Both the position numbers and the translations under genes were made by a program. Shown in pieces: positions 35,130 through 63,621 of a stretch of 64,000 bases of DNA. The notes beneath the pieces were generated by a model. It made no database searches and was not told where the DNA came from. It was given only the letters and a program-made list of their open reading frames with translations. Every line of letters begins with the position of its first letter. Position 1 is the first letter of the stretch. Origin of the DNA: a virus; the IMG/VR virus record IMGVR_UViG_3300021512_000004, positions 1-64,000 of that record; one strand, 5' to 3'.

Positions 35130-35143
35130 ATATACCTATAGAA

Positions 35144-40720: not shown

Positions 40721-40721
40721 A

Positions 40722-43094: not shown

Positions 43095-43112
43095 GAGAAT
43101 CAAGGAGTTAGG

Positions 43113-44519: not shown

Positions 44520-44521
44520 AT

Positions 44522-44785
44522 ATGAATTTTGCTAAAGAGATAATCAGAAGGGCGTTTTTAGAAGGGTATGAGTGCCGAGTTGATGACGGGGATGGGGTGC
44601 CTAGAAGGTACGAAGACTTTCTCCAAACCTGGGAAGCAGTGACATCAGTGTGCGAAGCTCAGGTGTACATAAACACAGAACGTCGGACTGAAAGAATGTA
44701 TGTAGTTAACAGCGTAAAGCCAGAGGAAACCGCAGCTGACTTCTCCGGTGATGGTTTTATTGAAGCGGTCTGGGATGAACTCTAG
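44522..44785 (+). CDS. Hypothetical protein
   Basis: GGAGG RBS. Confidence 0.55.
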   Translation: MNFAKEIIRRAFLEGYECRVDDGDGVPRRYEDFLQTWEAVTSVCEAQVYINTERRTERMYVVNSVKPEETAADFSGDGFIEAVWDEL

Positions 44786-44799
44786 GAGGGGAAACTACC

Positions 44800-45252
44800 A
44801 TGTGTGAATTCACACAAACAGAGAAAGAAGTAATAAAGCAAGCCATGTCCATTATGGAAAAGGCTCTGAAGACCCACGAATTCCAAGCATCTGACATAGG
44901 GACAGTCAAACAGTTCTGCCAAGCAAAGTTAGTAGACGCTTTGGATGAGCAGTTCTGCTGTCTGTTTCTTAACTCTAAATACGAACTGATGAAATTCGAA
45001 GTTCTATTTAAGGGGACAATTGACTCCTCATCAGTCCACCCAAGGGTAGTAGTACGAAAGGCGCTAGAGTTGAACGCAGCTGCGATAATCTTCTGCCACA
45101 ATCACCCCTCTGGGAACTCAGAGCCAAGTCCAGCAGACCAGGAGATAACTAAGAGGCTGAAGGACATCTTGAAGGTAGTAGATGTTCGATTTCTAGACCA
45201 CATAATAGTGGGAAGCGTGGCTGTATCTATGGCAGAGCTTGGCTTAATTTAA
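44800..45252 (+). CDS. RadC-like JAB-domain protein
   Basis: E.F.CLFLN, LFKGTID...VHPR, HNHPSG..EPS.AD and LDHIIVG motifs. Confidence 0.9.
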   Translation: MCEFTQTEKEVIKQAMSIMEKALKTHEFQASDIGTVKQFCQAKLVDALDEQFCCLFLNSKYELMKFEVLFKGTIDSSSVHPRVVVRKALELNAAAIIFCHNHPSGNSEPSPADQEITKRLKDILKVVDVRFLDHIIVGSVAVSMAELGLI

Positions 45253-45272
45253 TTTAATGTGAGGGGTTAAGC

Positions 45273-46001
45273 ATGAAAAAATCAGTATTAGCAAGAGAAC
45301 AAAAGAAAGAGTTTAGATTCACCAGGCAAACCAAAGAATATGGATTGGTTGATATTATTCTGAACTTAAGATACGACGATGAGGGTGGGAACAGTCACAA
45401 CTCCTTTTCGATAACTGCAGCAGTCCATAAGGGAGGTAAAAATTATTCTGGGCATTCCTTAATTGCCTGTGGAGTTTTTACGAAATTTATCAAACACAAT
45501 CTACCAGACTTCGCCTATCTTTCAAAGTGGCACTGGATGACGAGTGAGGGGCCGCTTCACTACATTGCTAACACGCAGTATCACGCTTCTGACAAGGACT
45601 GCCACGGCTTAAGGAAGGGAGAATATTCTGCTTACGTCATTAAAGTAATGTGCAATATAGGCAAAGAAGAAGAGGAGGTGCAGGTTTATGAGAGTGGGAC
45701 AATGTACACAAACCCGCAGGGAAATGAAAATCTGGAAAGTAGCAACGCTAAGGAACAGTTGAAAGTAGAGGAAATGGTTCAGAGGATAAAGCCAGAACTA
45801 AATCCAAGATTGGTTAAAGTGCCCTTAGAAGGGTCTATTAGCGACGGGAAAGAGGTTGATGTTGAGGCTGCGAGAGACTCCGCTATCTGGCCAGAAGCCT
45901 CCCTGGATCAGTTAAGGGATGAAGGGGCATTGAAAAGGAGACTGCCGCAGCTAATTTCAGACTTTGCCGCAGATATGGGGAAGTTGGGCTTCACTTTCTG
46001 A
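45273..46001 (+). CDS. Hypothetical protein
   Basis: GAGG RBS; KWH.....GP.HY.ANT.YH motif. Confidence 0.6.
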   Translation: MKKSVLAREQKKEFRFTRQTKEYGLVDIILNLRYDDEGGNSHNSFSITAAVHKGGKNYSGHSLIACGVFTKFIKHNLPDFAYLSKWHWMTSEGPLHYIANTQYHASDKDCHGLRKGEYSAYVIKVMCNIGKEEEEVQVYESGTMYTNPQGNENLESSNAKEQLKVEEMVQRIKPELNPRLVKVPLEGSISDGKEVDVEAARDSAIWPEASLDQLRDEGALKRRLPQLISDFAADMGKLGFTF

Positions 46002-46014
46002 AGGAGAAACAAAG

Positions 46015-46311
46015 ATGAAAAACGAACCAGGTCTAGTATGCAAAGAAGACAAATTCTCAGATTTTATATCATTCCTCCTGGCCAAGGATAAGGTCGTAAA
46101 GTCCTTGGTGGAAAGCGGGAATCACGAGGCTGCAGAGAGGGTTCGCAGCAGCTCTGTGTATATTGAGATTGATGGAACTCCCACCAGGATTGGAACTGTT
46201 AGAGGGCTGATGAGCCGAAGCATCAGATCGCTGGAACTACTGCACAACGCCGTTACAGACAGGAGGATTAACCCGGAAAATGGGGCGGTGCTACGCCCAG
46301 TAGAGGACTAA
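46015..46311 (+). CDS. Hypothetical protein
   Basis: AAGGAG RBS before MKNEPG. Confidence 0.55.
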   Translation: MKNEPGLVCKEDKFSDFISFLLAKDKVVKSLVESGNHEAAERVRSSSVYIEIDGTPTRIGTVRGLMSRSIRSLELLHNAVTDRRINPENGAVLRPVED

Positions 46312-46312
46312 C

Positions 46313-46546
46313 TTGAGTCAATCAAAGATCCAATCCTTAGTAGAATCGACAGTAAACGTGTTAGTAGGTTTCTGGGTGGCTGTAGCTTCGCAGGTAGTCA
46401 TATTTCCTTACTTTGGGATACAGACAAGCCTGACCTCAAACTTAGGCATAGCTGCCTGGTTTACTCTAATCAGCATACTGCGAAGCTACCTCCTGAGAAG
46501 GTTTTTTAACGCAAGATTAAAGAGAAAGTACAATGAAACCATTTAA
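46313..46546 (+). CDS. Small conserved phage membrane protein
   Basis: QS..QSL.E...NV.VGF and S..RSY..RR.FN motifs; 2 TM segments. Confidence 0.65.
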   Translation: MSQSKIQSLVESTVNVLVGFWVAVASQVVIFPYFGIQTSLTSNLGIAAWFTLISILRSYLLRRFFNARLKRKYNETI

Positions 46547-46778
46547 ATACAACATAGGTGAAAAGCTCTACATCGGAGGTCTCAGTAAGAAGTATAAATT
46601 GGCAAACCCATTTATTGTTGGTAAGCGCAAAAGGGAGATCATAAAACTCCTGGTTGACGGTGAGATCGTAGAGTCTGAACACCTCCAATACTGCCCTGAC
46701 CCGGATGAATTTGCTCAGGTTTGGTATGGTATGGCGAGGAAGCATTGACAAAAAACGTGGAATCTGGAGCTTATTAAC

Positions 46779-47867
46779 ATGCAAATAAGACTGTTCAAAA
46801 ATCATAACTCGACAATAGGGTACTGGGAGTGCTGGACAACTTCAGAAGGGGTTGTGCATTCAAAATGGGCAACCTCCCTAACCGGGAAGCCCACCTGCTA
46901 TCAATATAGGGCCGAACCTATGAACGTAGGGAAAGCCAACGAAACAACTCCATTGGAGCAGGCCGAAAAAGAACTTTTAAGCGCCGTTAAGCGTAAAAAA
47001 GATAAAGGGTATGTGGATACTATGAAGGAAGCGGAACTGCCCTGTACAAACAGCCTTGGTCTATTGAAGCCTATGTTGGCCACTCCAATTAATAAAATCA
47101 AAGCGGAGAAAATAGATTGGAAAAACGCCTTTGTGCAGCCCAAACTGGACGGTCACAGGGCGCTGTACACAGACGGGATACTTTATAGCCGTACAGGTCA
47201 GGAGTTAAACCTACCCCATGTAGTAAAGGCCATTAAGGCCAGCGGCCTTGGCCACCTTCATTTGGACGGAGAGCTGTACATTCACGGGTACACCTTGCAA
47301 GAGCTAAGCTCCCTAATTAAAAAGCAACAGCATGGGACGCAGCATCTTGAGTATCATATTTACGATATAGTTAACGACAAACCGTTTGTAGACAGATATG
47401 CGGCCATAATATTGGCAGATACCTCCCACTCACACATTAAAGTAGTAGAGACTACAGTTATTACAGATAACTCCGGGTTAGTCACATTACATAAATCCCA
47501 TCTGTCCAATCACTATGAAGGAAGCATCTTACGTATGGGACGTAAAGGCTACCAGGACGGGAAACGCTCACGAAATTTATTAAAACTGAAAGAGTTTCAG
47601 GACGCCGAATTTGAAATCATTGGCGTAGAAAGCGGGAAGCCTCACATAGGAGCAGAGGGTACTTTCCAAGTTCCAATATGGAAATGCGCTGTAGGTAATG
47701 GAGAAACCTTTACGGTTACAGCGCAAGGTAAGAGACACGAAAAACATCAACTGCATGAAGAATCCGCACAGCATATTGGGAAAAAGCTGACCGTAAAGTA
47801 CCACTATTTGAGCAAGTTGGGAGTACCTCAGCTGCCAGTAGCGTTACGCTTTTTTGAGGGGTTGTAA
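46779..47867 (+). CDS. ATP-dependent DNA ligase
   Basis: PMLA, QPKLDGHRA (motif I), LDGELY, YEGSILR, LLKLK and P.LPV motifs. Confidence 0.92.
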   Translation: MQIRLFKNHNSTIGYWECWTTSEGVVHSKWATSLTGKPTCYQYRAEPMNVGKANETTPLEQAEKELLSAVKRKKDKGYVDTMKEAELPCTNSLGLLKPMLATPINKIKAEKIDWKNAFVQPKLDGHRALYTDGILYSRTGQELNLPHVVKAIKASGLGHLHLDGELYIHGYTLQELSSLIKKQQHGTQHLEYHIYDIVNDKPFVDRYAAIILADTSHSHIKVVETTVITDNSGLVTLHKSHLSNHYEGSILRMGRKGYQDGKRSRNLLKLKEFQDAEFEIIGVESGKPHIGAEGTFQVPIWKCAVGNGETFTVTAQGKRHEKHQLHEESAQHIGKKLTVKYHYLSKLGVPQLPVALRFFEGL

Positions 47868-48301
47868 TGGATAAATGGGACGAGCGTTTTTTAGATATGG
47901 CGGAGTTAGTCAGCACATGGTCGAAAGACCCTGCAGCGAAGGTAGGCGCAGTCATTGTAGACGCAAACCAGAGGATAATATCAACAGGCTTTAACGGACT
48001 TGCACGTAATGTTATAGATGCAGCCTCGCGCTATTCAGATAAAGCAATCAAACATCAAATAATATTACATGCAGAAAGTAATGCAATATTATTTGCTCAA
48101 CAATCTTTAGCAGGATGCACCATCTACACATCACCTCTGCCAACCTGCGCCCACTGCTCATCGCAAATCATACAAGTAGGTATCACCAGGGTAGTTTGCC
48201 GCCGATCAGATGTAAGTGATAAATGGGAATTGTCTGCTGAGCTGGCAAGAAATATGTACGAAGAAGCGGGAGTTATTTTCGATGACAACATATCGAGTTA
48301 G
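47867..48301 (+). CDS. dCMP deaminase
   Basis: SKDP...VGAVIV, GFNG, HAESNA and P.CAHC motifs. Confidence 0.92.
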   Translation: MDKWDERFLDMAELVSTWSKDPAAKVGAVIVDANQRIISTGFNGLARNVIDAASRYSDKAIKHQIILHAESNAILFAQQSLAGCTIYTSPLPTCAHCSSQIIQVGITRVVCRRSDVSDKWELSAELARNMYEEAGVIFDDNISS

Positions 48302-49610
48302 TTGGGAAATTGATGTAGAAGCGGATTCCGTAAGCGGAGCCGCATTACAAGCATGGGAAATTATGAAAGATAATTCAGAAGATAATGAGGCCACGATATT
48401 AGGTATTCGTAAACTGGGAGCTAAAGAGGAAACTCTAGTAGACGTTTTAGATCTGAATCTGAAGGAGGGGGAAAATGACTTATGAAGAAGAGATCTTCAA
48501 AGGTGTTCTAATGTTTCGCCATAACCGCCACTCTGCTTGGCAGCAATGCTCGATTGAGAAAATGAGTGAGAGAATAATTAATCTGGAACTTAGTATTAAG
48601 GAGGCCAAGGAAGCAGGGTACATGGAAGGGAAGCGTTACGTGCAAGGCAGGATGAGATGCCTCCTTGGATTAGAAGATTAATTAATGTGTGAATTCACAC
48701 AAAATAAAAGGTGACAGATATGATTAATATTGTACCGGACTCAAAAGACGATAGCTTCATAGAAGCTAAAAACGTAAACCCCAACAATCCCATATTCGCC
48801 ATTAAAGGGGGAAAAGTTGCGGACATGTTGGTTGCAGAAAACAAAGGCTGGATACTTAGAATCGGAGGGGTGAATGGCTCATCAGGATACTTCGAAGACA
48901 TCTCTGATTGTATAGAAGCTGGGGAGGAGTGTGGGTACACCTTCCACCAAGAGGTAGAAGTTAAATAGTGAGGGATTACGACCACGAGGCTGCCAGTGAA
49001 TTTGCTATGTTTGGTGGCTATGGAGATTGGTATTTTCAAACCCCAGAAGAACAAGAGCAAGCTTTGAAGGATCGACTTGCCTTACCCAGCAGCGGAGAAG
49101 AGGCGCAGGAGGCTAAAGCAAGAATACGGAAGAGAATAGCACTGCGAAAATTACAGAATCGAAGGGGGAGGCTACATGAAACTTAGTGAACAATTAAAAC
49201 AAGACCATGAAAGTGGAGATTGTGGGCGTTGGCTGGAGGGTTACGCGGAAAGGGCAAAACAGATGGAAGACATTATTAAAGAACTTTGTGACTGTTTAGA
49301 GGCAACCTACTCAGGCTCACCAGAGGGTAGAGCCTACCTAAGAAAGGTAAGAGACGCCCTATCTGGACAATGCGATTAAGAGGGCTAAGTATGAGAAAGA
49401 GTAAAAACTTTAGGCCTATAACCCTCCAATTTAAATTATGGAGGTTGCGGAAAAAAGCCAGAGGTCATCGTAAGGCTTATTTAAAACTCTCTAACAAGTA
49501 TTCTTGCGGTATTTTGTTACTGAATGGGGTAACTGGAGGGCGGTCTTGTTATCACATAAGAGAGTTAGAGAGAATTGTAAAGCTAATAAAAACTCTTGAG
49601 GAGGTAAGTA

Positions 49611-50210
49611 ATGATTAACTGCACAGAAGAAAGTTTTAAGAAATCAACCAAAGATCACAAGATGCACATCATTAGGGACGAAGGTGTTCACCGGCATATA
49701 CGCTTTAAAAAGCCAAGAACAGTCTGCTACAGCTTTGACTTAATCACCTGGCCAGGACACCTCTGTATTACTGGCGACTGTGGCACCTACGTGTTTCAGA
49801 GAACCGAAGATATGTTCAGTTTCTTCAGGGGCAACCCCCGGCAGAAAGAGAGGCTATATATCAACCCAGGTTACTGGGGAGAGAAGCTGCTCAGTATTGG
49901 AACTAACGCCGGGTACAAAGAGTTTGATGAAGATGTGTTCAAGAAGCGGGTAGCGGATCATTTTGAACAGTGGAAAGAACATAAAGATTTAACATCCAGC
50001 CAATCAAGGAGTCTATGGGAGGCGCTGGAGAGTACAGTTCTGTCCTATATGATGGACGGGGAAGTTCAGGCGTATCAGTCCATCAGTGAATTTGAGTATG
50101 AGGGCTTTCAATTTGAAGATTTCTTTGATGCTGGAGGCACTGAAACATACGCCTTTCATTACTTGTGGTGCCTGTATGCAATTGTATGGGGTATTCAGCA
50201 ATATGATTAG
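49611..50210 (+). CDS. Conserved hypothetical phage protein
   Basis: FDLITWPG.L..TGD.G.YVF, INP.YW.EKL and WCL.AI.WGI motifs. Confidence 0.65.
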   Translation: MINCTEESFKKSTKDHKMHIIRDEGVHRHIRFKKPRTVCYSFDLITWPGHLCITGDCGTYVFQRTEDMFSFFRGNPRQKERLYINPGYWGEKLLSIGTNAGYKEFDEDVFKKRVADHFEQWKEHKDLTSSQSRSLWEALESTVLSYMMDGEVQAYQSISEFEYEGFQFEDFFDAGGTETYAFHYLWCLYAIVWGIQQYD

Positions 50211-50845
50211 AGATTTGACAGACCCAGCCAACACAGTGATCTCAATCAACCTTAAAGATGGGAGATACTTTGAAGAATGTGACCTTACAAGTGATCCGTT
50301 TGGGGTGCCAGGGTTCGTTGCCTTTTGGGTAGGAGAAACCATACTGGTGATCCCACTGTCAACAGTGGTCAGTATGACAATGCAGGTCGGCGTGTAGCCG
50401 CTTGGATCGGAGGGTGGGGATGAAGAAACTAATTATAGGCAACTGTAATAACTGTCCTTTTATACGTGACGAAGAAACACGCTCAGAATTATTATTTGCT
50501 TACATAACAAAAGACCAGAGGGAGAATAAATGAACCTGATAACATATAAATTTGTGATACCGAAAAAAATAAGCGCGTGTCTACCTACAGATAGGAAGCT
50601 GTTAGTCGAGGCAGAAGCCCGAGGATTTTATAATGGAGATACCCCATATAATACCCTGTTTTCTAAACTATTCTTTTCTGGTGGGGAGTTAAACTTCAAG
50701 AGTAATATACCTCCTAAATTTGCAGAGGGGGCCGCCACGTATCTAAAACTATTCATGGGTAGCTTTGAACCAAAACACGAGGAGAAAGAGGCTATCTGCG
50801 CGATGATACTCAGTGAGCTGGTTGACTTACCGACAAAGGATTGAG

Positions 50846-51082
50846 ATGAGAAAAATCACTATACCAGAATGGGCCAGGGAGTTACCTGACTCAGCTAACC
50901 TAACGGCCAAGGATGTACTCTCTATATTTGAGTACTCCCCAAAAACATCTTGGTCTACCTTGGTGAGTAATAAGCTATTACCGCCCCCAGACCGCACGAT
51001 GCCTAGATGCGTAGGCCGATGCCCTATATCGTTTTGGTATCTAGGGACTCTGCGCAATTTAGTTACTAATCATGGAGGTTGA
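50846..51082 (+). CDS. AlpA/excisionase-like HTH protein
   Basis: L.A.DV.....S..T....V....LP.PD.....W pattern. Confidence 0.5.
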   Translation: MRKITIPEWARELPDSANLTAKDVLSIFEYSPKTSWSTLVSNKLLPPPDRTMPRCVGRCPISFWYLGTLRNLVTNHGG

Positions 51083-52082
51083 AATGAACTTAATGACGGC
51101 GCAATCAGAGATAGTCAGGATGAAGCGGGAGCTCGGGGTTAGGAATTTTAAAGCCCTTAATGGCAGTTACTACAGGACAAAGAAAAGTCAAAGGGAGCTG
51201 ATCACCTCCACCTGCGGGAAGAAGATATCCCAAGCTCACTTCCTAAGGGAGTGTGTGCGATTTCAAGGGGTGAAGGATGCCTTCAGAAAAGAGGCCAATT
51301 CTAAAGTCAGAGTAAGACGAAGCTACAGTAAGCCTTTTCGTTATGGAGATCTAAATCAAAGGATCTCAGATGGCAGGTGCGGAATCGCTCAAGCATTGAG
51401 AGCGCGGAAGGCCATTATACGACAAGCTGTTTCTGACAGTATAAAGCACCCTGCGGGACAATCCACTATTAACATTGAAATGGTAGAGACGCCTGAGGAG
51501 GTTTATTACACCTCTCGCACGGAGAAAGGAGAGCAGTACAGCAGTAGATGTACGTTCAGAAAAACAGATTTGATTGTGAATGTTGGCCTACCGCATAAGT
51601 GGTACAGCAGAGTCTATAAAAAAGGATTCTCCACTGTGGACGGACTGTTTAACTTAGACATATCCACACCTCTAAGGAACCAGCCTGAAGGGGTGGAGGT
51701 AAGAGCGGCAAAATTCCTATACCCTGGGAGAGGGTGCTCTTACCACGTAATGGATGGATTTATAGCGTTTGCGGAAGAGTTCTCTTTCCATGGAAAAACC
51801 CTAAAGTCCTCTATTAAAGGTGTGGCAAAGAAAGCCAGAATTTCTGAGTTACTTAAGGCTAGGCCCTCAGAAATTATAGCCAGGGCTTTGAAGTCTTCCG
51901 TGAAAGTAGGGGTGAGGGATTCTTATAAAGCAGGTAATTGTCAGTGGGGGACGTTGGACTTTTGCCGCCGTCACAACTTAGATCCGAAGTCAAAGATACC
52001 CCTGGAGGAGTTAGCGGCCTTGGCTCAAAAAGAGCCCAGGGCAGAGGTACTAACCGTATTAGCTATGAAACTTGCAGATTGA
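51072..52082 (+). CDS. Hypothetical basic protein
   Basis: Long ORF; C-terminal DS..AGNC..GT..F motif. Confidence 0.6.
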   Translation: MEVEMNLMTAQSEIVRMKRELGVRNFKALNGSYYRTKKSQRELITSTCGKKISQAHFLRECVRFQGVKDAFRKEANSKVRVRRSYSKPFRYGDLNQRISDGRCGIAQALRARKAIIRQAVSDSIKHPAGQSTINIEMVETPEEVYYTSRTEKGEQYSSRCTFRKTDLIVNVGLPHKWYSRVYKKGFSTVDGLFNLDISTPLRNQPEGVEVRAAKFLYPGRGCSYHVMDGFIAFAEEFSFHGKTLKSSIKGVAKKARISELLKARPSEIIARALKSSVKVGVRDSYKAGNCQWGTLDFCRRHNLDPKSKIPLEELAALAQKEPRAEVLTVLAMKLAD

Positions 52083-52095
52083 GGGAGTGAGCTAA

Positions 52096-52863
52096 ATGCT
52101 AAATGATATCGCAATACCTAAAAATCTGAATGACTTTATCTCAGCGCGTGACGCGGCAATAGCAGGGTTCTCCCACGCAAAGAGGGCTCTTTACCTAGCA
52201 GAGAAGGCGCTGGACTCTGTGATCTCCTACACCTGGCCTTTGGGATCTAATCCGAAACTTACCAATGAAGAATTTGTCAGGGAAATTGACAGAAGAATGT
52301 GGCGCAAGGCATTCGATCTGACCCGGTTTGCGCAGGTGATGGACAGGGAGGCCAGAGAGAGCTTCAACCAAAGTCTTGACGGCAAACCTCCTGAATTTAC
52401 GGCTGACAATGTTCGGTCTATCTTTTTGTCGGTGTCACAAGAGTCAGACCTGATGTTCAAGCGAGGGCTGGTTAATGTATTCAAGAGAAGAAACTCAGGC
52501 TATAAGACAAATAGCAAAGAGGCGTTTAAGGTTGATCGAAAGATGGTCATGACGTGTATCACCCGACCGAACTATGGTCGAGGGATGCAAATGTCCAGTT
52601 ACGGGGCGGCAGAGATCAACGATATAGACAGGATTTTCAAAACCCTTGACGACAAGAAGCATAATCAAGGGGAGCTTGAAACAGCCCTTAACGCGGCCTG
52701 GAGAGATAAGCCGTATGTTTATGAAGATGACTACTATCAGGTCAAGGGGTTTAAGAACAGCAACGCCCACTTTGTATTCAAGAGGCAAGATCTGCTTGAC
52801 AAGGCAAATTTGCTAATTGCCGAGTATTATGAGGATGGAGCGTTGGCCGATGGTTCTGTGTGA
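52096..52863 (+). CDS. DUF4942-like protein (stand-alone)
   Basis: ID...W, PEFT.DN..S.F, F.RGL.NVF, YKTN and K.FKN.N.H..FKR.DL motifs. Confidence 0.75.
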   Translation: MLNDIAIPKNLNDFISARDAAIAGFSHAKRALYLAEKALDSVISYTWPLGSNPKLTNEEFVREIDRRMWRKAFDLTRFAQVMDREARESFNQSLDGKPPEFTADNVRSIFLSVSQESDLMFKRGLVNVFKRRNSGYKTNSKEAFKVDRKMVMTCITRPNYGRGMQMSSYGAAEINDIDRIFKTLDDKKHNQGELETALNAAWRDKPYVYEDDYYQVKGFKNSNAHFVFKRQDLLDKANLLIAEYYEDGALADGSV

Positions 52864-54012
52864 ATTCACACAAAAAGGAGAGTAAGCATGATTGATAAAG
52901 TAGTAATACAGCAGATTAATAAGTTCAAAGTCACTATAAACGGCAAGACCTATGATAACTTTGAGAAAGTTGACGAGTGGAATGGGATGCTACATTTCAC
53001 TGGGCCTAAAGGGATGATCATTGTCCATAAACCGGAAAATATGTTCGCTACGTTTGCAACTATCTTTGGAGGCAGTGATCAAGAGGTGCAGGAAGAGTTT
53101 GACCTGGCGAAAATATCATCAGACTTACTTAAAGATTCAAGGAATGTGGAGGGAGAAAAATGAGCGGAGGAGATTGGAATCGTATATTCAATGAGGTGGA
53201 AGACGCGGCGGAGAAATTAAAAGCTGAGAGATGCCCTTTGAGGAGGGCTTTCGGAGATCACTTAAGCTTGGTAGCGGAGGCATTACACCAAATAGAACTG
53301 GTTGACGGAGGGGATTCATCGAGTCCAGAGGATACTAACGCTATCAAAAAGGTCTATGGAGACATGGCGGAGTCTGTGGAGTTGGCGGCGTTGCGGGAAG
53401 ATGCAGGAAAACTAATTAAAGAGTTGAGGAGGCTGGGAGGGTGAGGAGTTACAAGGGAAGGTCAATCAGAGACTTAGACAAGAAAGGTAATTATTACTCC
53501 AGACATATTGACGCTATGACGAGGGAGAAGCTTCATGGGAAGGCTGAAATTGCCGCTGAGTTAGCTCATAGGGATATGGTTATAGACACCTTAAAGGTGG
53601 GTAATGTTCAGCTGAATAAGTTCGTGAGTTACCTTTTGTCAGACAGGGAGGACTTGGACGACGAGTTTATTGCCTGCCAGAACAAAGAAGATCTTCTTAA
53701 AGTTATCGACACAGTTTAGAGGTAAGGGATAATGGAAAACAAAGATTTAAGTCTACTTTGGGTAGGGGCTTTCAGGTATTACCTTGGAGGGCAGAACATA
53801 GCAGTACACAGCTTCTGTAGTCTGTTAATGGACGAGATAGATGCCGGGAGGGTTCCAGACAATGCACAATTCGTCATTAAAAAGGGCTTGCTGGAGGCGT
53901 TTGCAGCGGACGATAAGGATCAAATGCGAGGATTTGATTCATCTATTCTTGGACATAAAGTGGATAGAAGTAAGTGGCTGGAAGTTCTTGGGGCGTTGTC
54001 GGGAGGGTAGCA

Positions 54013-54562: not shown

Positions 54563-55321
54563 ATGAAAAACATACAATTGAAAATACTGAGTCCGCTAGT
54601 AGGAAATGAGTTCCCAATTCCAGCTTACTCAACAGAGGGATCTGCCGGAATGGATCTCAGGGCCTGCATTGAGCAGGAAATGGCTGTCAGTAAAGGAAAA
54701 GCAGTCTTAATCCCTACTGGGGTAGCTATACACATAGAAGACCCTGCATACGCTGCAGTAATCTTACCAAGATCAGGTCTGGGCCATAAGCATGGAGTAG
54801 TCCTTGGCAATCTGGTGGGGCTGATTGACAGTAAAAATCATAGGTAAATTGCTGTCATTAAATTCGGTGAATTGCTGGGAAATCCTTAGAGTTCTTATAC
54901 CAAAGCGGAACTGGAAACGGTAAACGTAACGGTTTGAAAAGTTAAGAAATTGGACAATCAGCAGCCAAGACCCTGAAAAGTGTAAAAGTATGGGTAAGGT
55001 TCAACGACTAGGTGTTGAGTTAGCTAGACGATACTACACCCACGAGCGCCGGACACTTAAATTAAGTGAAGATATAGTCTGAACTTTAGGGAAACTTAAA
55101 GAAACAAGGATAAAGAGCCTTGTGATAACACGATGGATTACCAAGGACAGTTGATGATCTCCTGCTGGAATAGGAGCGATGTGAGCTACATAGTGAAGCC
55201 TGGGGAGCGCATAGCCCAGTTGATCATTGTTCCTGTAGTGCAGGCAGAATTTGAAGTGGTTGAGGAGTTTAGCCAGAGTCAAAGAGGGGAGGGAGGATTT
55301 GGCAGTACTGGAGTTTGTTAA
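54563..55321 (+). CDS. dut: dUTPase split by a group I intron (exon 1 54563-54832, exon 2 55136-55321)
   Basis: The joined product restores motif 3 GLIDS|DYQG; SAGMDL, PRSG, RIAQ and [10 protein letters not shown] are all present. Confidence 0.92.
54833..55135 (+). ncRNA. Group I self-splicing intron, 303 nt, no homing endonuclease ORF
   Basis: Exon 1 ends in U and the intron ends in G; P1 TGACAGT/GCTGTCA with U.G pair; core elements GAATTGCTGGGAAA, AATCAGCAG, GTTCAACGACTA and AAGATATAGTCT. Confidence 0.9.
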
Positions 55322-56021: not shown

Positions 56022-56356
56022 AGGCGCTCTGCGGAGTAGAAAGTATACCTTACAGGTTATGTACGTTCAATAGGAGTGGAGTTATGGCAAGCATTTTTGT
56101 AATGACAGACCCTATGTCTGAAGTTTACTACTCGCTGAAGGATAATCGGGTTAGAAAGTTCAACCTTCATGGGAAAACGCTGTATGACGAATATAAAGGG
56201 GTTTCTGCGGAAGGGTGGGAGGATGCGCTAGTAAAGTTCGTGAAACAGCAGCGATTGAATATAGATGGAGGGGAAGGACTTCCCTCATTCGTGTACGGCC
56301 TGATTGATAGAGGACTGCTGGAAGACTAACAGGCGCTCTGCGGAGTAGAAAGTATA
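56022..56356 (+). repeat. 26-bp direct repeat flanking ORF 56084-56329
   Basis: AGGCGCTCTGCGGAGTAGAAAGTATA at 56022-56047 and 56331-56356. Confidence 0.85.
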
Positions 56357-57384
56357 TATCATAAGGTAGGAGGGAGCTAGAGATGAGGTATAAAACTGAA
56401 AATAAGCACATAGATGAGATTAGAAGCGGAGACTACGTGTTACATAATGAGGAGGTGGTAACTGTAGGGCGGAGGGATATAAAACTGAGCGAATTTATGG
56501 GAACAACTCTGTTCGGAGACTGCTATCACTTGGGAACAAAGCCAGTGAAAAAGGTGACAATCCTTGGGAGTGAAAGACTATGAGCATCAAAACAACATGT
56601 CAGAATGGACTGACACTATGATTGAGGACAAGATGGCGGAACCGTTTTTCCGGCACAGTATGTTTAACAATTACACTCTGCCACGTTAGCTGAGTTGCTA
56701 TCAATTACGGAGGGATAATTATGTGCTTGATAACCGACGTGTATGATGCTGGATACGACTGTAGTAAAAAGGAGAAAGGCTATAGCCCAGAAGGTAGCGC
56801 CGCAGTAGCCCTGGCAAAACATGAGATAGCCTGCCTGAAACTTGAAAGCGAGGGTTATTTTGCAAAGATACAAAAGATGAGGGCTACTCTAGAGTTGACG
56901 AAGAGATCTATTATCGACAGGAGGCTTAATATGCCAGAGACAATGGCCGTGATTGAGGAGGCTTTAGCCTCGCAGCGGTCGATTAAGCTACCATTTAATT
57001 TTGGATAAATCCACGGGGGTTGCAGATGAGACTAAAAATTAAACAGAGCCAGAATTTAAAAGAAGGGGAGGTAAGGGTTTGCAAAGGGTTTCTATGGTTG
57101 CCTAAATACCTGGATAGAGAGTGGAGGTGGCTTGAGTTTGCAGAATGGGCACAAATGACAATGCGACTACCCCCACTTGCGGTTGAAGTCGGTTGCTATT
57201 CCCCAGGGCAAACTCCCCTTCAATGGGTGAGTACGGAGTGGAGGTAACCCCCGGGCTGGTTCCTTATAGTTGTAAATTTACTATTTGGAGCGTTAAACGT
57301 AAGGAATTTTACGCAGCTCTAACACCAGATTCAGCTGCGCGCTTGGCGCGTCCGCTGGAATTAATGTTAGATTGCGATTGATTT

Positions 57385-57624
57385 TTGGAGGATGAGAGAG
57401 TGGATAAAGCAAAAGAGATTCGCAGGGGATTTGTTGATATTTGGAAATGGATAGGCTCGCCAGATTGTTGGTTTTTAATAATGGTTACGTTTTGCCTCTG
57501 GTGCATATTTTTAGCTCCAGAATCAGCTATCGCTGGGCTTGCGAATACATTTATTGTTATCGGGCTGGTTATAATTTGGCATTTGGCAAGAATCGCAAAA
57601 TCCTTAGAGGACAAGGCAATCTAA
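57385..57624 (+). CDS. Cassette ORF: small membrane protein with 2 TM segments (may start at GTG 57400)
   Basis: Stop TAA lies within the TAAC of attC2. Confidence 0.6.
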   Translation: MEDERVDKAKEIRRGFVDIWKWIGSPDCWFLIMVTFCLWCIFLAPESAIAGLANTFIVIGLVIIWHLARIAKSLEDKAI

Positions 57625-57671
57625 CAACCAGCATAACGGGTGAGCGGATAATTTAACTGAGGATGGTGAGC

Positions 57672-58067
57672 ATGGAAAACCAGAACGAACAGAAGCAACA
57701 AGAAACCAGCGGTGAAGAAGCGAATCCGGTTGATGTAATTGTTAGTGCTCGCTGCCCGGACTGCGCTGCTCAGCCTGGCATGCTGCACAAGCTGGGCTGT
57801 GATGTTGAAAAATGCCCCGAATGCGGCTGGCAATATATCAGCTGTGACTGCCCCGCCGAAGAGACAACGGCTCCCCGCCTCCTCTGGTCTGGCGAATGGC
57901 CAGGGATAAGGGAGTGCCGCGAATTTGGATGGTATTCAAAATTGGTTTCTGGGCGCGGCTGGGTGAGCTGTGACAAAAGCGAGCCTGGCGCAAGCGAGAG
58001 CCTCAACCGCCTTGCCGTTGACGCCACATGGGATAAAGAAAAAGGGCGCTACATACTAGAGAGCTAA
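57672..58067 (+). CDS. Cassette ORF: Cys-rich (Zn-binding-like) protein starting inside attC2
   Basis: CPDC..H..GCDVE.CP.CG.Q.ISCDC motif; GAGG RBS in the attC loop. Confidence 0.7.
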   Translation: MENQNEQKQQETSGEEANPVDVIVSARCPDCAAQPGMLHKLGCDVEKCPECGWQYISCDCPAEETTAPRLLWSGEWPGIRECREFGWYSKLVSGRGWVSCDKSEPGASESLNRLAVDATWDKEKGRYILES

Positions 58068-58138
58068 CGCTCGCATAAACTGCGGAGCGTCAGCGGAGTC
58101 AGATTTTCATGCGATTGTTATAAATCTGGAGTAGAACG

Positions 58139-58384
58139 ATGGCAACAAACAAATACGATTTGGACACAGCTTACATCGGAAAAAACCTTAAAATATTGCA
58201 GCGGGATATTGAGCAATATACCCCTCAAGAGATGAGGACAGCTTTGAACAAGCTGGCAGACACGTGCCATAACTTTGCTAAGTGCGGTCGCTGTAGCGGC
58301 TACAACACGTCAACGATGCGACACGATGCGGCTCACTGGTTTTGCTATGACTGCGCCGAGAAGTACCCACTAAAAGCCTTATAA
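58139..58384 (+). CDS. Cassette ORF: Zn-ribbon protein
   Basis: GGAG RBS; CGRC and CYDC; stop lies within attC4. Confidence 0.65.
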   Translation: MATNKYDLDTAYIGKNLKILQRDIEQYTPQEMRTALNKLADTCHNFAKCGRCSGYNTSTMRHDAAHWFCYDCAEKYPLKAL

Positions 58385-58458
58385 CGCTCAATTAAACGGT
58401 TGCGTAGCAATCCGGTTTAAATTGCTTGTTATATTTAATATTAATTCGGAGAAAAATC

Positions 58459-58707
58459 ATGAGTGAAATTGAAACAGTTGCAGCGAGTCTCACTATTGAA
58501 ATGAATGTCACATGCCCTAATCCTGACTGCGGGGATTATATAGATTTGCTGCGATCAGAGTATACGAACGGGGTGGATCATAATGAGGACGGGGGTTTGC
58601 TGCGCCAGATGTTCCCTGAAAATCATAGTAATGAAGATTTTGAGTGTGATGATGTCATTTGCACAAAATGCAAAACAATGTTCAATGTGCGCGAGCTGGA
58701 ATGGTAG
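58459..58707 (+). CDS. Cassette ORF: Zn-ribbon protein
   Basis: GGAG RBS; CPNPDC and CTKC. Confidence 0.65.
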   Translation: MSEIETVAASLTIEMNVTCPNPDCGDYIDLLRSEYTNGVDHNEDGGLLRQMFPENHSNEDFECDDVICTKCKTMFNVRELEW

Positions 58708-58767
58708 TAAATATAACACCCTGCATAACGAGTGAGCGTGGACAACAAAATGAATGAGGTGAACACG

Positions 58768-59070
58768 ATGGGCAAGAACGAAGCCACGAAGACAGAACCC
58801 AGCGGCGAAGAAGCGAATCCAGTTGATGCACTTGTTATGCGGCAACTAGATAAAATCACTGGATATTTTCAGCCTAAACGCACGGAAACGCTGCGCGATG
58901 AAGCCCTGCCATTTGTTGGTCGGCTATTAACATTCGAGGCTCTTTGGCTGATAGATAAAGAAGATGGGGGCCCTTACGTCGGACAATGGGCGATGCGCCC
59001 GATTAATGAAGCAGGGGGCTGGTTGCCAATTGGGTGGGTTCCCGAAGAAGACATTAGACCTGCTACATAA
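58768..59070 (+). CDS. Cassette ORF starting inside attC5
   Basis: GAGGTG RBS in the attC loop; N-terminus homologous to the ORF at 57672. Confidence 0.65.
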   Translation: MGKNEATKTEPSGEEANPVDALVMRQLDKITGYFQPKRTETLRDEALPFVGRLLTFEALWLIDKEDGGPYVGQWAMRPINEAGGWLPIGWVPEEDIRPAT

Positions 59071-59152
59071 CACCCGATTCAGCTGCGCGTTTGGCGCGTC
59101 CGCTGGAATTAATGTTAGATTGCTAATTAATTAATTATGGGGCGATAACGAG

Positions 59153-59341
59153 ATGGCCGAAGTGAAGTTCTGGTGTGACAGCGGGGCAAACATCCATTCT
59201 TGCAATACTGAAACAGTTGATACCGTTGATGATTTAGGGTTAGACGAAGGGGAGTGGGAAAAGCTCACTGATGACGAAAGGCACAAGCATGTTAGGGATT
59301 GGGCTAATAACTACATAGAGATGGGGTGGGCAGCAATCTAA
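59153..59341 (+). CDS. Cassette ORF: small acidic protein
   Basis: Stop lies within attC7. Confidence 0.6.
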   Translation: MAEVKFWCDSGANIHSCNTETVDTVDDLGLDEGEWEKLTDDERHKHVRDWANNYIEMGWAAI

Positions 59342-59383
59342 CGCCCACATAAGCGACTTGATGTGATTGTTATAAATGAAACT

Positions 59384-59533
59384 ATGAAAAAGTATATTTG
59401 CGTTAGGTGTTTAACCGTAATGAGCCGGGTTGAGCTTAGAGACGGAGCAAAACTTAAAAAGATTTCTATTGAGTTAAGCCGGAAAATTAAAATGTGCAAG
59501 TCTTGCACATGCCGGACTTTCTATAGTATTTAA
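59384..59533 (+). CDS. Small CxxC...CxxC protein after the last attC
   Basis: Manual translation MKKYICVRCLTV...MCKSCTCRTFYSI. Confidence 0.45.
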   Translation: MKKYICVRCLTVMSRVELRDGAKLKKISIELSRKIKMCKSCTCRTFYSI

Positions 59534-59725
59534 TTTGGGAGCAAGTAAACGTAAGTAAAAAGACAGTTTTGAATGCTCCGAAGGTGAGCGTAGAGATAAC
59601 TATTGTGTATATTGCAATGGGAAATATCGAGGTGTCCAGAGCATTACGACAATCACGAACAATCTAAGAAAGGCGCTACCGTCTTTCAAGGCAACATAAT
59701 TAGATTGTTTTAAAGAGGGTAAAAT

Positions 59726-60013
59726 ATGGGAAAAGTTTTAAAGTTCAAACGAAAGGTTTCATTCTCAAAGGAGAAGATGATCTCTGCAAATCCTAACGTA
59801 AAGGTAAAAGAAGAGGAGATGGAGATTTATCAAGAATTTGGAAAGGTTTACGCAGATGTATTCGTAAAGCCTCATGGGTTCTACTCCGGGGCGTTCTTAT
59901 TAAACGAAAACACCTTGAAGATAGAGGAGATGGTGAGCCTCCTGCCAAGGAGGTTCTTCCTGTCACAGGTCAGGGCAGCCCAGGAAAAGTGTTGGGCGAA
60001 AGATTGGATTTAA
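59726..60013 (+). CDS. Hypothetical protein
   Basis: GAGG RBS. Confidence 0.55.
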   Translation: MGKVLKFKRKVSFSKEKMISANPNVKVKEEEMEIYQEFGKVYADVFVKPHGFYSGAFLLNENTLKIEEMVSLLPRRFFLSQVRAAQEKCWAKDWI

Positions 60014-60041
60014 ATTGCAAGATGTAATAGTATAACCTTTC

Positions 60042-60539
60042 ATGCGAGTATTGGAGATTAACATGGTGGACAAAGTAAACAACCCTTTAACACGGCAAGA
60101 CTTTACAACTGGAACCTTACCTGGGGAGGTAGCCAAAGACGGTGAGGAGATTGGAGGAGTTAGTAGAACTTTGTTAGGGGCGGAAACCATCAAGGCTAAG
60201 GACGTAGCTGAGTTTGAAAGAAAGGAAGAGTTCGAGCCTGTAAGGAAGTCATCACCGTCAAAGATTTTTTACAATCAGTTAGCCGAGTCTTTGAATAAAA
60301 TGAAAGTAGGGGATATACTCTTGTTCCCTCTACCTGAGAACATGCTTGCTCATAACTTAAAGAAAGTTATGAGCAACAGAGGGGCAAGGGACGGAGTAGA
60401 TATCCAGTATGGTAGAGCAAGGAAAGACTTCCAAGGAAGGACTCTACCAATGAAGCTACGACCGATGACAGTAAAGAAGCTGACAGCCTGCATCATCACA
60501 GTGTTCCCATTAGCAGTCAAAAACAAAGTCAAAGAGTAG
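60042..60539 (+). CDS. Hypothetical protein
   Basis: ORF; probably starts at MVDKVN after a GGAG RBS. Confidence 0.55.
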   Translation: MRVLEINMVDKVNNPLTRQDFTTGTLPGEVAKDGEEIGGVSRTLLGAETIKAKDVAEFERKEEFEPVRKSSPSKIFYNQLAESLNKMKVGDILLFPLPENMLAHNLKKVMSNRGARDGVDIQYGRARKDFQGRTLPMKLRPMTVKKLTACIITVFPLAVKNKVKE

Positions 60540-60610
60540 TGTATTTTGTTTACAACCCTTTGACTTTGTTGAACAAAGTGTAGCAGCTACACACTTACAG
60601 GAGGTAAGAA

Positions 60611-60808
60611 GTGAATGAGAATTTAAGGTACATGAAGGAAGTCCGAGCCAGGTACCGATTAACGCATAGAGAGCTGGCAGCTCTGAGTGAATATGGGTTG
60701 GACTCAGTTAAAGGGTGGTTCTCTACGTCTCCAGGAAGGAAGGTAAATGTTCCTGACAGAGCTGTGGCGATAGTTAAGTTGAAGCTGGAGAAAAGAGAAA
60801 GAACCTGA
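60611..60808 (+). CDS. Cro/XRE-like helix-turn-helix regulator
   Basis: R....LTH.ELA.L......SV..W pattern; AGGAGG RBS. Confidence 0.7.
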   Translation: MNENLRYMKEVRARYRLTHRELAALSEYGLDSVKGWFSTSPGRKVNVPDRAVAIVKLKLEKRERT

Positions 60809-60819
60809 AGGGGGAGGCG

Positions 60820-63621
60820 ATGTATCGCTACTATCAGTTGGAAGAAGGAAAGTCAGAGTGGAAGGTAGCCAGAGCCTCTGAGATAGAGGAAAAAATTAGA
60901 GAGGAGAAACCTAAAAGAGTTGCGATATTGGAAGTTTCCGAGCTGGTAACGGACGGGGCAGATAAAAGGTCATACTATTATAAAGGGCCTTTATATTTCG
61001 ATATAGACTGTAAAGATGACCTTGATTTAGCTCTGCAATCAGGGGTTAGTTTAGTCAATAAATTAGTCTCTATGGGAGTACCGCAGCAGGAAGTTCAGAT
61101 ATTTGCCTCAGGAAGTAAGGGGGTCCATGTTCTAGTTGATGAGAGAGTATTCAGCTCTGGGAGAAAGGTCAAAGCCCTGCCTCTAGTTTATAAGCAGATG
61201 GCCAGGGAGCTGTATGTTCCTGGAATGGATTTCGCAGTGTATTCTTGCGGAAGGGGAAATGTGTTTAGGGTTCCCAACATAAAAAGGCCAGACGGGAATT
61301 ATAGGATACCAATCCTGTACGACAAGTTAACTTCCCTAAATGCAGAGAGTTACAGAGAACTTTGCTCTAAGCCTAGTGAGATATCCCACCTCCTGCCAGA
61401 GAACAAAGTAAAAGCCCTGCAGTTAGAAGATATGTTTAACAGGTGCAAAAAGGCGGCGAACTCTAAGCCTGCAGTAGTTGTCACTGTACCTTCCAACCAG
61501 ATGATACAGTTGAGAGACGTGACCCCTCCTTGCATACAGAAGGTGTGCGACTGGAAAGGGCTGAGGGCTGAGGTAAACCTGAACCAAGCAGCTATGCAAG
61601 TAGCAGTTTTCCTAAAGGCTGCCAGTGTCCCAGACTCCCTGTCTTCGGGGATGATAACCAGATTAGCGGAAAACTCCGTAAGCTCGAAGTATGACAACTG
61701 GAAATCTAGGCTAGAGCACATAAAGGGCCAGGTAGAGTACATGAAGGGCTCTGAATATACCTTCGGATGCAACTGCATGAGGTCTCTGCTTCTGAAGCGG
61801 CCCTGTGAAGGGTGTCCCATCGAGAAGGATCAGGCGTTCTCTGAAGAGGCTTCACATGGCGGGTTGATAGAGAAGAATGGTGGGTACTACCTCAGAGGGG
61901 CAGAGAAGGATCGAATGATAACAGACTGGACGATGAAACCTATGGACTCTTTCATCGACATCCCTCAGGACGGATCCAGTCAACCTAGAAGGGTGGGAAC
62001 TCTCTTCGAACTGATACAGAACGACGAAACCATCTGTACCGTTACAGTAGACGAAACCAGCTGGATGTCTCGATCAGGATTCCTCAGGGACACCACGGAG
62101 TCCGGGTATATCCCTCTCCGATCCCCCTGTAGCTACTACGGGCAAGATGCAGACCTACACAAGATCAGAAATCACGTTTTTAGGAAGGAGAGCGACATGG
62201 GAGAAGTCTACCAAGTTTATACTTGTGGGATACACGTTGATAAGGTGAGCCATTCTGACGTATTCACCTACGTTGAGCCTGAAATGTCCATAAATAGTAA
62301 CAGGGTTTCAGGCACTCATAAACTGGCAGGCCGGGTTGTAGCCAGACCTTACTTCGCTGAAGTGGGAGTGTGTAAGGAGGGAGACGAGGCTGCAGACGAG
62401 GCTCTGTTTAATCTGATGGCGATGAATGAACCCCACGTCATGGCGAAGACACTTGGTTGGTTTGTAGCCTGCCATTTGAAAGTCCATCTGACAAAAGTCT
62501 ATCACCAATTCCCCGTCCTGAGTTTGTGGGGAGGGGCGGGATCTGGGAAGTCTATCACTGCAGGTCTAGTTAGTTGGATCAACGGGACAGACTACATGGA
62601 CAGAGATACAGGAGTGAACGTCTCCAACATCACCAACTACGCCTTGCTGGAGTATTCGGCCAGCACAACGACAATCCCAAGGCTGATGGAGGAGTTCAAC
62701 GAGTCTAAGATGTCAGAGAAAGCCTACAACTCTGTTGGGGAAATTCTAAAGGCCAGCTGGAACGGGGAAACTTTGCTGCGGGGTACTTTAGGCAACAAAT
62801 CGGATAAGGGGAGGACGGGGGCAGTGGTTACGGCTATTCCTATCACAGGGCCTCTATGTGTGATGAGCGAGCAAAGGCCGGTTATGCCTGCCATCCAGGA
62901 GAGGTCTTTGGACGTATTCTTATCAAAGCCTGGGAAGAAAGGAAGAAAGCCTTACATGAGGAAGGCTTCTTCTGGAAAGCTCAAGTTAAGGGAGATAGGA
63001 AAGGCACTTATGTTTAAGGCTCTTCAGACGGATATAAAGACAGCGACCAAGTGGTTTGACGAGGTGGATGATAGTTTGTCCGACGAGTTAGACGATAGGC
63101 CGAGATATTGTCAGATGGTGGCAATGATAGGCTTGAGATTTCTGAAGTTAGTGCTAGAGAAAGACCTTAAACTCCCTAAATCCTGTGCAAGATTAGACGA
63201 CCTCATCTACACTCAGCAGTCTTACTTTGACAGATTGGCAGGTGATACTGCCATACTGGGGGCCAGCACTGAGATAGACAGGATATTGGACAAGATGGCC
63301 ATCATGGCGTCCTTGACCACTGTAGGTAACGGGGTTGAGTGGCTTGTGGCAGGAGTTCACTACCTGAAAGGTGGGTCAGAGCTGCTGATAGATCCAACCC
63401 TATGTCACGCCATGTACAAGCAGTTCTGTGCTAGGGAAAGCAGAGAGGTGGTGATTATCAAGGAAGCTGCACAATTCAAGAAACTCCTCAGGGATGAAGC
63501 GTACTTCAAAGAGATTGTTAGGGATCCAAATATATTTGACGGTAGGGAGCTTTATTGCTTGGACCTAGAATCCATGAAGATGCAGGAGATTCCTGTAGAT
63601 AGGTTTGAGGAGTTGACGTAA
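60820..63621 (+). CDS. Primase (AEP-like) and helicase fusion replication protein
   Basis: YFDID and SGSKGVH primase motifs, PPCI and C..C cluster, Walker A GGAGSGKS, Walker B LMEEF. Confidence 0.8.
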   Translation: MYRYYQLEEGKSEWKVARASEIEEKIREEKPKRVAILEVSELVTDGADKRSYYYKGPLYFDIDCKDDLDLALQSGVSLVNKLVSMGVPQQEVQIFASGSKGVHVLVDERVFSSGRKVKALPLVYKQMARELYVPGMDFAVYSCGRGNVFRVPNIKRPDGNYRIPILYDKLTSLNAESYRELCSKPSEISHLLPENKVKALQLEDMFNRCKKAANSKPAVVVTVPSNQMIQLRDVTPPCIQKVCDWKGLRAEVNLNQAAMQVAVFLKAASVPDSLSSGMITRLAENSVSSKYDNWKSRLEHIKGQVEYMKGSEYTFGCNCMRSLLLKRPCEGCPIEKDQAFSEEASHGGLIEKNGGYYLRGAEKDRMITDWTMKPMDSFIDIPQDGSSQPRRVGTLFELIQNDETICTVTVDETSWMSRSGFLRDTTESGYIPLRSPCSYYGQDADLHKIRNHVFRKESDMGEVYQVYTCGIHVDKVSHSDVFTYVEPEMSINSNRVSGTHKLAGRVVARPYFAEVGVCKEGDEAADEALFNLMAMNEPHVMAKTLGWFVACHLKVHLTKVYHQFPVLSLWGGAGSGKSITAGLVSWINGTDYMDRDTGVNVSNITNYALLEYSASTTTIPRLMEEFNESKMSEKAYNSVGEILKASWNGETLLRGTLGNKSDKGRTGAVVTAIPITGPLCVMSEQRPVMPAIQERSLDVFLSKPGKKGRKPYMRKASSGKLKLREIGKALMFKALQTDIKTATKWFDEVDDSLSDELDDRPRYCQMVAMIGLRFLKLVLEKDLKLPKSCARLDDLIYTQQSYFDRLAGDTAILGASTEIDRILDKMAIMASLTTVGNGVEWLVAGVHYLKGGSELLIDPTLCHAMYKQFCARESREVVIIKEAAQFKKLLRDEAYFKEIVRDPNIFDGRELYCLDLESMKMQEIPVDRFEELT

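Follow-up and report, generated by a model that had tools for sequence, protein, structure and literature searches.

How does a phage come to carry, among its early genes, an array of hairpins and single genes that resembles an integron cassette array, and what kind of array is it? The question is raised by a window comprising the first 64 kb of the 74,740-bp IMG/VR virus record IMGVR_UViG_3300021512_000004 (~90% complete), in which seven attC-type sites, all on the + strand, occupy positions 57317–59375 (2.06 kb) and have six single-gene units of 271–443 nt between them. Integrons are regarded as bacterial devices, whose integrases fold the bottom strand of attC and cleave it between A and C, and to our knowledge only a handful of phage-borne attC clusters have been reported. 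A preliminary description of the window had proposed that the phage uses a host or distantly encoded integron integrase to gain, lose and shuffle early genes, an interpretation that was partly supported by the analyses reported here. We conclude that the locus is very probably a genuine integron-type cassette array without an integrase, that is, a cluster of attC sites lacking an integron integrase (CALIN; Cury et al. 2016, PMC4889954), assembled with an enzyme acting in trans from cassettes of a pool shared among unrelated phages.

The seven hairpins belong to the attC family

The preliminary description had placed seven hairpins of attC architecture at 57317–57372 through 59336–59375 and suggested a search with an attC covariance model. 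All seven were found at those positions, its minus-strand reading of the fourth site was correct to the letter, and a surrogate covariance model (R2, described below) matched every one of them, as follows:

s0, 57317–57372 (+): type I site with 5′ box CTCTAAC and 3′ box GTTAGAT; R2 21.4 bits, E 0.013
s1, 57619–57747 (+): type II, long site (129 nt), homologous to s4 from TAAC to GTTA; R2 30.1 bits, E 1e-4
s2, 58062–58123 (+): R2 36.9 bits, E 2.6e-6
s3, 58379–58434 (+): R2 37.9 bits, E 1.5e-6; not matched by the pattern that seeded the model
s4, 58711–58840 (+): type II, long site (130 nt), containing the start and leader of open reading frame (ORF) E; R2 35.3 bits, E 6e-6
s5, 59065–59120 (+): type I site; R2 26.1 bits, E 1e-3
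s6, 59336–59375 (+): minimal site (40 nt, 3-nt loop) and last clear one; R2 33.4 bits, E 1.8e-5

Read on the + strand, each site consists of ..TAAC, a spacer of 3–5 nt, an L arm, a loop, an L arm with one extra base, a spacer and GTTA... The outer boxes were compared with the inverted consensus RYYYAAC / GTTRRRY, in which the AAC and GTT triplets are conserved: 7/7 sites open with ..TAAC and close with GTTA.., and the full 7-mers fitted the consensus at 5–7 of the 7 positions. L helices of 7–9 bp with unpaired spacers of 3–5 nt were recognized in six sites by a structural scanner for attC-like architecture and in all seven by alignment to the model. The extra base always lies in the 3′ arm (G in s0, s1, s4, s5, and s6, C in s2, A in s3), at the position of the bulged G in the bottom strand of attC_aadA1. 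Loops vary from 3 to ~95 nt, and the sites measure 40, 56, 56, 56, 62, 129, and 130 nt. When folded as DNA, s0 reached −13.4 kcal/mol (z-score −4.1) and s3 a z-score of −3.8. The scanner was run on the genome and on 85 other viral loci, and returned 6 sites within the 2-kb array, 2 in the 72 kb of genome outside it, and 0 in the 746 kb of the other loci. A chance origin of the hairpins was rejected on these counts together with the specificity of R2.

Rfam holds no attC family, and searching it gave only chance matches in the array region. The surrogate model was seeded with a pattern derived from s2 and s6 that retrieved 73 viral loci, nearly all of them with convincing hairpins. Model R1 was built from 39 of these 73 loci, and its search of viral loci yielded 149 sites, spread over 64 loci and never of mixed polarity within a locus; these 149 sites, none of which comes from this window, make up model R2. 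R2 was run unfiltered over both strands of the window and over a control locus from plasmid R100, in which the identity and orientation of attC_aadA1 had been confirmed beforehand. Its top match was this class 1 integron site (67.4 bits, E 1e-13), on the strand opposite aadA1. The seven window sites all scored on the + strand (21.4–37.9 bits, E 1.5e-6 to 0.013), the scores of s0, s1, s3, s4, s5, and the control being free of circularity from the seeding, and nothing else in the 64 kb fell below E = 1 on either strand. R2 also detected attC sites in Tetrasphaera phage TJE1 (three) and Pseudoalteromonas phage H101 (four); since Polaribacter phage P12002L gave no match, it does not span every attC type. 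These results on sites and controls indicated that the hairpins are members of the integron attC family and that the + strand of the window is their bottom strand.

Cassette ends pair across the genes and not within the sites

With the crossover at TAA|C (see below), each cassette starts at the C of a ..TAA|C box and ends with the TAA of the following box; it is made up of an attC hairpin of its own at the 5′ end together with a ribosome-binding site, a single small gene, and its stop codon. The earlier claim that the hairpins separate single-ORF units held in that single-ORF cassettes are bounded by them; it applies less plainly to s1 and s4 (~130 nt), whose 3′ boxes sit inside the following ORFs. 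The cassettes are:

A, 57323–57624 (+), 302 nt: ORF 57385/57400–57624, 79 aa, small membrane-like protein without Pfam or PHROG match; the TAA stop forms the last 3 bases, and the ends GTTAGATTGC / GCAATCTAA pair perfectly
B, 57625–58067 (+), 443 nt: ORF 57663–58067, 134 aa, of a Cys-rich zinc-ribbon family (CPDC...CREFGW) widespread in viral contigs
C, 58068–58384 (+), 317 nt: ORF 58139–58384, 81 aa, with a C-terminal zinc-ribbon-like motif (weak Pfam zinc-ribbon match, below cut-off); ends pair at 5/8 positions beyond the core
D, 58385–58716 (+), 332 nt: ORF 58459–58707, 82 aa, zinc-ribbon-like, with a TAG stop 7 nt before the box; ends pair at 7/8 positions beyond the core (14 nt at 93% overall)
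E, 58717–59070 (+), 354 nt: ORF 58768–59070, 100 aa, without family match in Pfam or PHROG
F, 59071–59341 (+), 271 nt: ORF 59153–59341, 62 aa, of the DUF7167 / phrog_8831 phage family (Pfam E 4.5e-10, PHROG E 5e-24); ends pair perfectly over 11 nt
G, 59342–59667 (+), possible and open-ended seventh cassette, its end not set by a model match: ORF 59384–59533, 49 aa, CxxC...CxxC, with a homologue (56% identity) in viral locus L163
Possible decayed type I site, 59655–59712 (+), a lead only: AATCTAAG ... ATTAGATTGTT, a stable hairpin (z-score −5.2) with type I-like boxes, in which both conserved triplets are mutated and which R2 did not match

All cassette genes have ribosome-binding sites and run in the direction of the phage early genes, and in 5/6 cassettes a TAA stop codon makes up the final three bases.

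The ends of the units had been described as mutually complementary and taken as a mark of cassettes that were once excised circles; the complementarity was borne out, and it bears the signature of site-specific joining at TAA|C. The three perfect pairs quoted at the time, GTTAGATTGC/GCAATCTAAC, GTTATATTTA/TAAATATAAC, and GTTAGATTGCT/AGCAATCTAAC, are exact inverted repeats at cassette ends. Pairing was then scored over the 8 nt outside each TAAC and GTTA core. Across a gene (GTTA side of site i against TAAC side of site i+1), 34/48 positions were complementary, a value reached by 2 of 5040 permutations, against 15/56 positions, about chance, for the two halves of one array site. Since the pairing lies across the gene and not within the site, the sites are chimeras of two cassettes, which is a classical mark of integron arrays. 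Forms reconstituted as in an excised circle were more stable than those in the array for A (−19.6 against −16.7 kcal/mol), D (−14.1 against −10.5), and F (−18.8 against −9.5).

Sites s0 and s5 share 91% identity and both have GTTAGATTGC behind them, and the genes of both end in GCAATCTAA, while the sites downstream of these genes differ from each other. The inner hairpin thus moves with its downstream gene, and the crossover is placed accordingly at TAA|C on the + strand, where the bottom strand is canonically cleaved.

Two long sites encode a common protein leader

Sites s1 and s4 each enclose in their variable loop a ribosome-binding site, a start codon, and ~25–27 codons (..SGEEANPVD..), and this leader continues into two unrelated proteins, ORF E sharing only the SGEEANPVD leader with ORF B. 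Most of the 22 homologues of ORF B begin right at the first CPDC motif, which indicated that its 28-aa leader is an addition coming with the site; the closest homologue, P0002, has a similar leader. Relatives of ORF B are encoded in 92 viral loci, and its homologues in 80 viral loci had no such flanking sites.

Site type and cargo are shared with unrelated phages

Both an attC type and a cargo family of the array are shared with unrelated phages. The type I site s0 is 91% identical to positions 3532–3588 of locus L163, which belongs to record G011, a complete 81.9-kb phage with terminal repeats and 15 model matches, all on one strand. No tyrosine recombinase was found in G011, nor any homologue of the primase encoded 1.4 kb downstream of the array described here. 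The homology of the G011 type I site runs from TAAC to GTTAGATTGC; the site heads a third, unrelated gene, and its cassette ends in GCAATATAAC. The 15 sites of G011 form four clusters (74–888, 5231–6086, 57598–61043, and 76001–76730) plus a match at 81837–81888, at the very end of the record and within or adjoining the terminal repeat. The DUF7167 gene of cassette F has a 56%-identical homologue in L133/L176, which is also a cassette, of the same layout, behind an early promoter. When viral contigs were searched for an exact 18-mer from the type I site, three matches came up, all in coding DNA and attributable to chance, and a DNA search with the array against 50,697 phage records gave no match.

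The phage also has a C5 cytosine methylase gene (34362–35129, − strand; PF00145), without an adjoining attC site. Homologues of it are cassette cargo in at least L125, as two tandem copies, and lie directly behind a model match in L128, L141, and L147, in agreement with the methylase cargo that Qi et al. (2023) observed. In the window (34300–35150, − strand), the first ~40 nt of the methylase gene and ~20 nt upstream of it (CCCGTAGTTCTATAGG..ATGAAACATTTAGATTT..GGGATTGGCGGC) recur right after the stop codon, as would be left by the loss of a second copy in tandem. A further array with attC sites and genes on the bottom strand was seen in L216/L119, a Salinisphaera sp. isolate-assembly contig and an IMG/VR viral record, both of 35,081 bp and with identical site coordinates; Salinisphaera may be the host genus of this array-bearing phage.

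The cassette genes lie on the recombined strand

All six genes of the array are on the attC bottom strand, and therefore attC stands in front of each gene and not behind it. The canonical placement, on the top strand with attC downstream of the gene, is that of aadA1 in the R100 control, and none of the six genes shows it. The same pattern and model were applied to viral contigs and to bacterial and archaeal genomes, counting sites at which an ORF of at least 50 aa ended on one strand only. In this sample, which was seeded by one attC subtype, used simple gene calls, and may contain some bacterial contigs among the 'viral' ones and vice versa, viral contigs gave 57 sites with bottom-strand genes only and 11 with top-strand genes only (33 loci with a bottom majority and 6 with a top majority), against 11 and 75 sites (5 and 48 loci) in bacterial and archaeal genomes (Fisher's exact test on site counts, p = 8e-20). 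Phage H101 is inverted as well, its sites and the annotated genes gp133–135 being all on the minus strand, and phage TJE1 has the canonical orientation.

In transcription the sense strand is the one that does not serve as template. The + strand shows positive GC skew over 38–64 kb, and the cumulative minimum lies near 36–38 kb; if replication goes rightward from ~36–38 kb, the + strand would be the lagging-strand template too. Under the inversion, the recombinogenic strand would thus be both the non-template strand and, presumably, the template of lagging-strand synthesis, while the genes would still run with phage transcription. An attC bottom strand on the lagging-strand template folds and recombines more, and most chromosomal integrons are arranged the opposite way (Loot et al. 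2017, PMC5371416). Inversion may, we infer, combine co-directional genes with a highly recombinogenic array.

Genome setting of the array

Leftward structural genes occupy 0.6–30 kb of the window, and a rightward block starting at ~37 kb contains a RadC-like gene, a DNA ligase, an intron-split dUTPase, a nuclease, and the 933-aa primase, which is only 26–27% identical to those of Vibrio and Pseudomonas phages of 81–88 kb. Primase relatives were found in viral loci (four, 42% identity) and metagenome loci (26, best 54–56%); apart from the primase, these loci have in common with the phage no more than the three genes directly before it, and no attC-like site was found in them. Gene content around the array is not kept even in the nearest of these relatives (primase 54–56% identical), and the array occupies a variable part of the rightward early/replication gene block. 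Its G+C content equals that of the flanking phage DNA. The phage is probably virulent.

Several other elements were observed in the window. A group I intron lies at 54804–55101 (+; Rfam RF00028, 101.9 bits, E 3e-25). Since it separates two ORFs (54563–54847 and 55133–55321) whose products match dUTPase genes of other viral loci, the dUTPase gene is apparently split by a self-splicing intron. A 16-bp palindrome, TGTGTGAATTCACACA, with GAATTC inside, is present in 11 copies at gene borders of the rightward early block (37839–52873, +), and the copies end before the attC array starts. An EcoRI-family adenine methyltransferase gene (33264–34247, +; PF13651, E 4e-130), in a stretch of low G+C (0.40) that separates the structural from the early modules, is worth noting beside the 11 GAATTC-bearing palindromes, which could be operators or terminators or be tied to this EcoRI-type methylase. 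Finally, a perfect 26-nt direct repeat, AGGCGCTCTGCGGAGTAGAAAGTATA, is found at 56022–56047 and 56331–56356, 309 nt apart, on either side of a small ORF (56084–56329).

Recombinase and alternative explanations

Neither IntI (TIGR02249) nor a PF00589 tyrosine recombinase was detected in the whole 74,740-bp record, so that the lack of an integrase near the array, already described, extends to the entire record. No IntI scored above cut-off in 15 other array-bearing viral records, and five of these, each at least 90% complete, were found to encode no tyrosine recombinase of any sort. Consequently, either the enzyme acts in trans or the arrays are relics. IntI1 recombined 5 of the 6 phage attC sites assayed, from TJE1, P12002L, and H101 (Qi et al. 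2023, PMC9892861). Since the sites match IntI1 substrates and such assays have been published, the IntI of a host is the obvious candidate and most likely the enzyme, in the past and perhaps at present. Seven sites on one strand within 2.06 kb, in a record without integrase, correspond to a CALIN as defined by Cury et al. (2016), and not to a complete integron, in view of the absence of intI and of any promoter enrichment. Under this reading, array assembly would proceed by attC x attC recombination, possibly also attC x secondary-site recombination, of single-stranded folded sites, with the enzyme provided in trans, most likely an IntI encoded by a host that has an integron, and the cassettes would be drawn from a pool common to other, unrelated phages.

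Several points weigh against assembly in trans from a shared pool. Functional attC sites measure ~57–141 nt, and s6, with 40 nt, lies below this range. The long sites s1 and s4 as well as s2, s5, and s6 fold as DNA no better than shuffled sequence (z-score +1.0 for s1), so that a number of the sites may recombine poorly and the array may be a fossil. For s2 and s6, from which the seeding pattern was taken, the scores are circular in part. No attI or Pc promoter was recognizable at the array, although attI cannot be recognized by sequence alone. Among the primase relatives, none was found close enough to reveal presence/absence polymorphism at TAA|C.

The alternative that survives best would be a phage-specific cassette system served by a recombinase other than IntI, such as a small Xer-like tyrosine recombinase of the kind that some phages or hosts carry or another hairpin-recognizing enzyme, in which the likeness to attC reflects common ancestry or common substrate geometry and the host integron is not used. 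It would account for phage-type cargo and for a gene orientation systematically opposite to that of bacterial arrays (57 against 11 sites, as compared with 11 against 75). We consider it improbable, since no tyrosine recombinase is encoded in this genome or in the five near-complete array-bearing phages, the best match of R2 is a canonical IntI1 substrate, attC_aadA1, and the sites of H101, which have the same inverted layout, are recombined by IntI1 (Qi et al. 2023, PMC9892861).

It is still less probable that the hairpins are phage regulatory elements (terminators, RNA processing sites, or modules like the promoter-early stem-loops, PeSLs, of T4-type phages) and that the genes are shuffled by homologous recombination between similar copies. 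The sites do fall between early genes, shortly before the ribosome-binding sites; attC sites may act as weak terminators (Qi et al. 2023, PMC9892861); and T4-type PeSLs mediate modular shuffling, their exchange being able to yield small circular DNAs, or mini-circles (PMC2839356, PMC4122927). Only s0 and s5 were picked up as terminator-like hairpins, and weakly. Sigma-70 promoter-like sites numbered 6 against 8.6 expected, none of them on the + strand within a site, and a PeSL or promoter reading was rejected for this lack of enrichment. Moreover, most sites are too dissimilar in sequence for homologous exchange, and regulatory elements would leave unexplained both the pairing of each gene's flanks and the fine match to attC (triplets of the boxes, length of the spacers, and position of the bulged G). 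Elsewhere in the early region, another repeat, the 11 copies of TGTGTGAATTCACACA, already takes up intergenic positions.

That the array is a fragment of a bacterial chromosomal integron picked up once as a passenger, with no phage role and no further recombination, is the least credible of the three, for although Vibrio anguillarum phages carry chromosomal integron fragments (Qi et al. 2023, PMC9892861) and several of the sites fold weakly, the genes are inverted relative to bacterial arrays, follow the phage early-gene direction with ribosome-binding sites and belong to phage families (DUF7167/phrog_8831; the CPDC family of 92 viral loci), the G+C content is that of the surrounding phage DNA, and the same attC type is present in another phage.

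The CALIN reading can be extended, as a tentative proposal to which we give somewhat less than even weight. Phages may keep a cassette pool of their own in inverted form (attC first, gene on the recombined strand, stop at the crossover) and, even when unrelated, exchange small early genes through it by means of the host integrase. The inversion would silence cassettes that pass between phage and bacterial integrons and would expose the recombinogenic strand, which as non-template strand and lagging-strand template would most often be single-stranded, and the long sites would supply a translation start and a leader.

Comparison with known systems

The preliminary description had held that such arrays are not known from phages. 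This was overstated and its premise outdated, since CALINs in virulent phages have been published: 17 phage CALINs were reported, some of them from virulent phages (Qi, Rajabal, Ghaly, Tetu and Gillings 2023, Front Microbiol, PMC9892861). Taken alone, the present locus is a well-supported further example of this published kind. What goes beyond that work is the prevailing inverted layout with the stop codon at the crossover and the presence of one attC type in an unrelated phage. In the literature searched, no earlier account was found of systematic gene inversion, of a stop codon at the crossover, of leader-coding sites, or of one attC type common to unrelated phages. Should phages possess a large cassette pool of their own in mirror orientation, part of the rapid turnover of small early genes would be explained. 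These small genes are candidates for host-takeover and anti-defence functions, and C5 and other DNA methylases are cargo in related arrays. Such a pool would also tie phage evolution to the SOS/IntI response of the host and would offer a natural test case for cassette birth and for the control of recombination by strand exposure (Loot et al. 2017, PMC5371416).

Bacterial arrays (In2 of R100 and sedentary chromosomal integrons) resemble the phage array in site family, in G|TT borders (AA|C on the bottom strand), in chimeric sites, in having one gene per cassette, and in the variable loop. They differ from it in that the phage array has no intI, attI or Pc, bottom-strand genes, very small cassettes (271–443 nt), and phage-type cargo. 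Like the array, T4-type PeSLs (Arbiol et al. 2010, PMC2839356; Comeau et al. 2014, PMC4122927) are small structured intergenic modules that bound swappable single genes in variable early regions. PeSLs, however, consist of a strong sigma-70 promoter and a terminator and act by homologous recombination between copies, whereas the sites described here have no promoter signal, are diverse in sequence, and match the attC model. Insertion by IntI outside att sites (bioRxiv 10.1101/2022.09.11.507474) could have been the entry route for the first cassette into a phage genome without attI, with the difference that it was shown in bacterial genomes. The closest parallels are the phage CALINs of Qi et al. 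(2023), which have in common with this one an attC array in a virulent-type phage, the lack of intI, and small genes of unknown function; that of H101 (PH101) further shares the inverted layout and sites detected by R2, while TJE1 departs from it by its canonical gene orientation. Compared with these CALINs, the present array has more sites, 7 in 2 kb, its stop codons fall exactly at the crossover in 5/6 cassettes, and two of its sites encode a shared protein leader.

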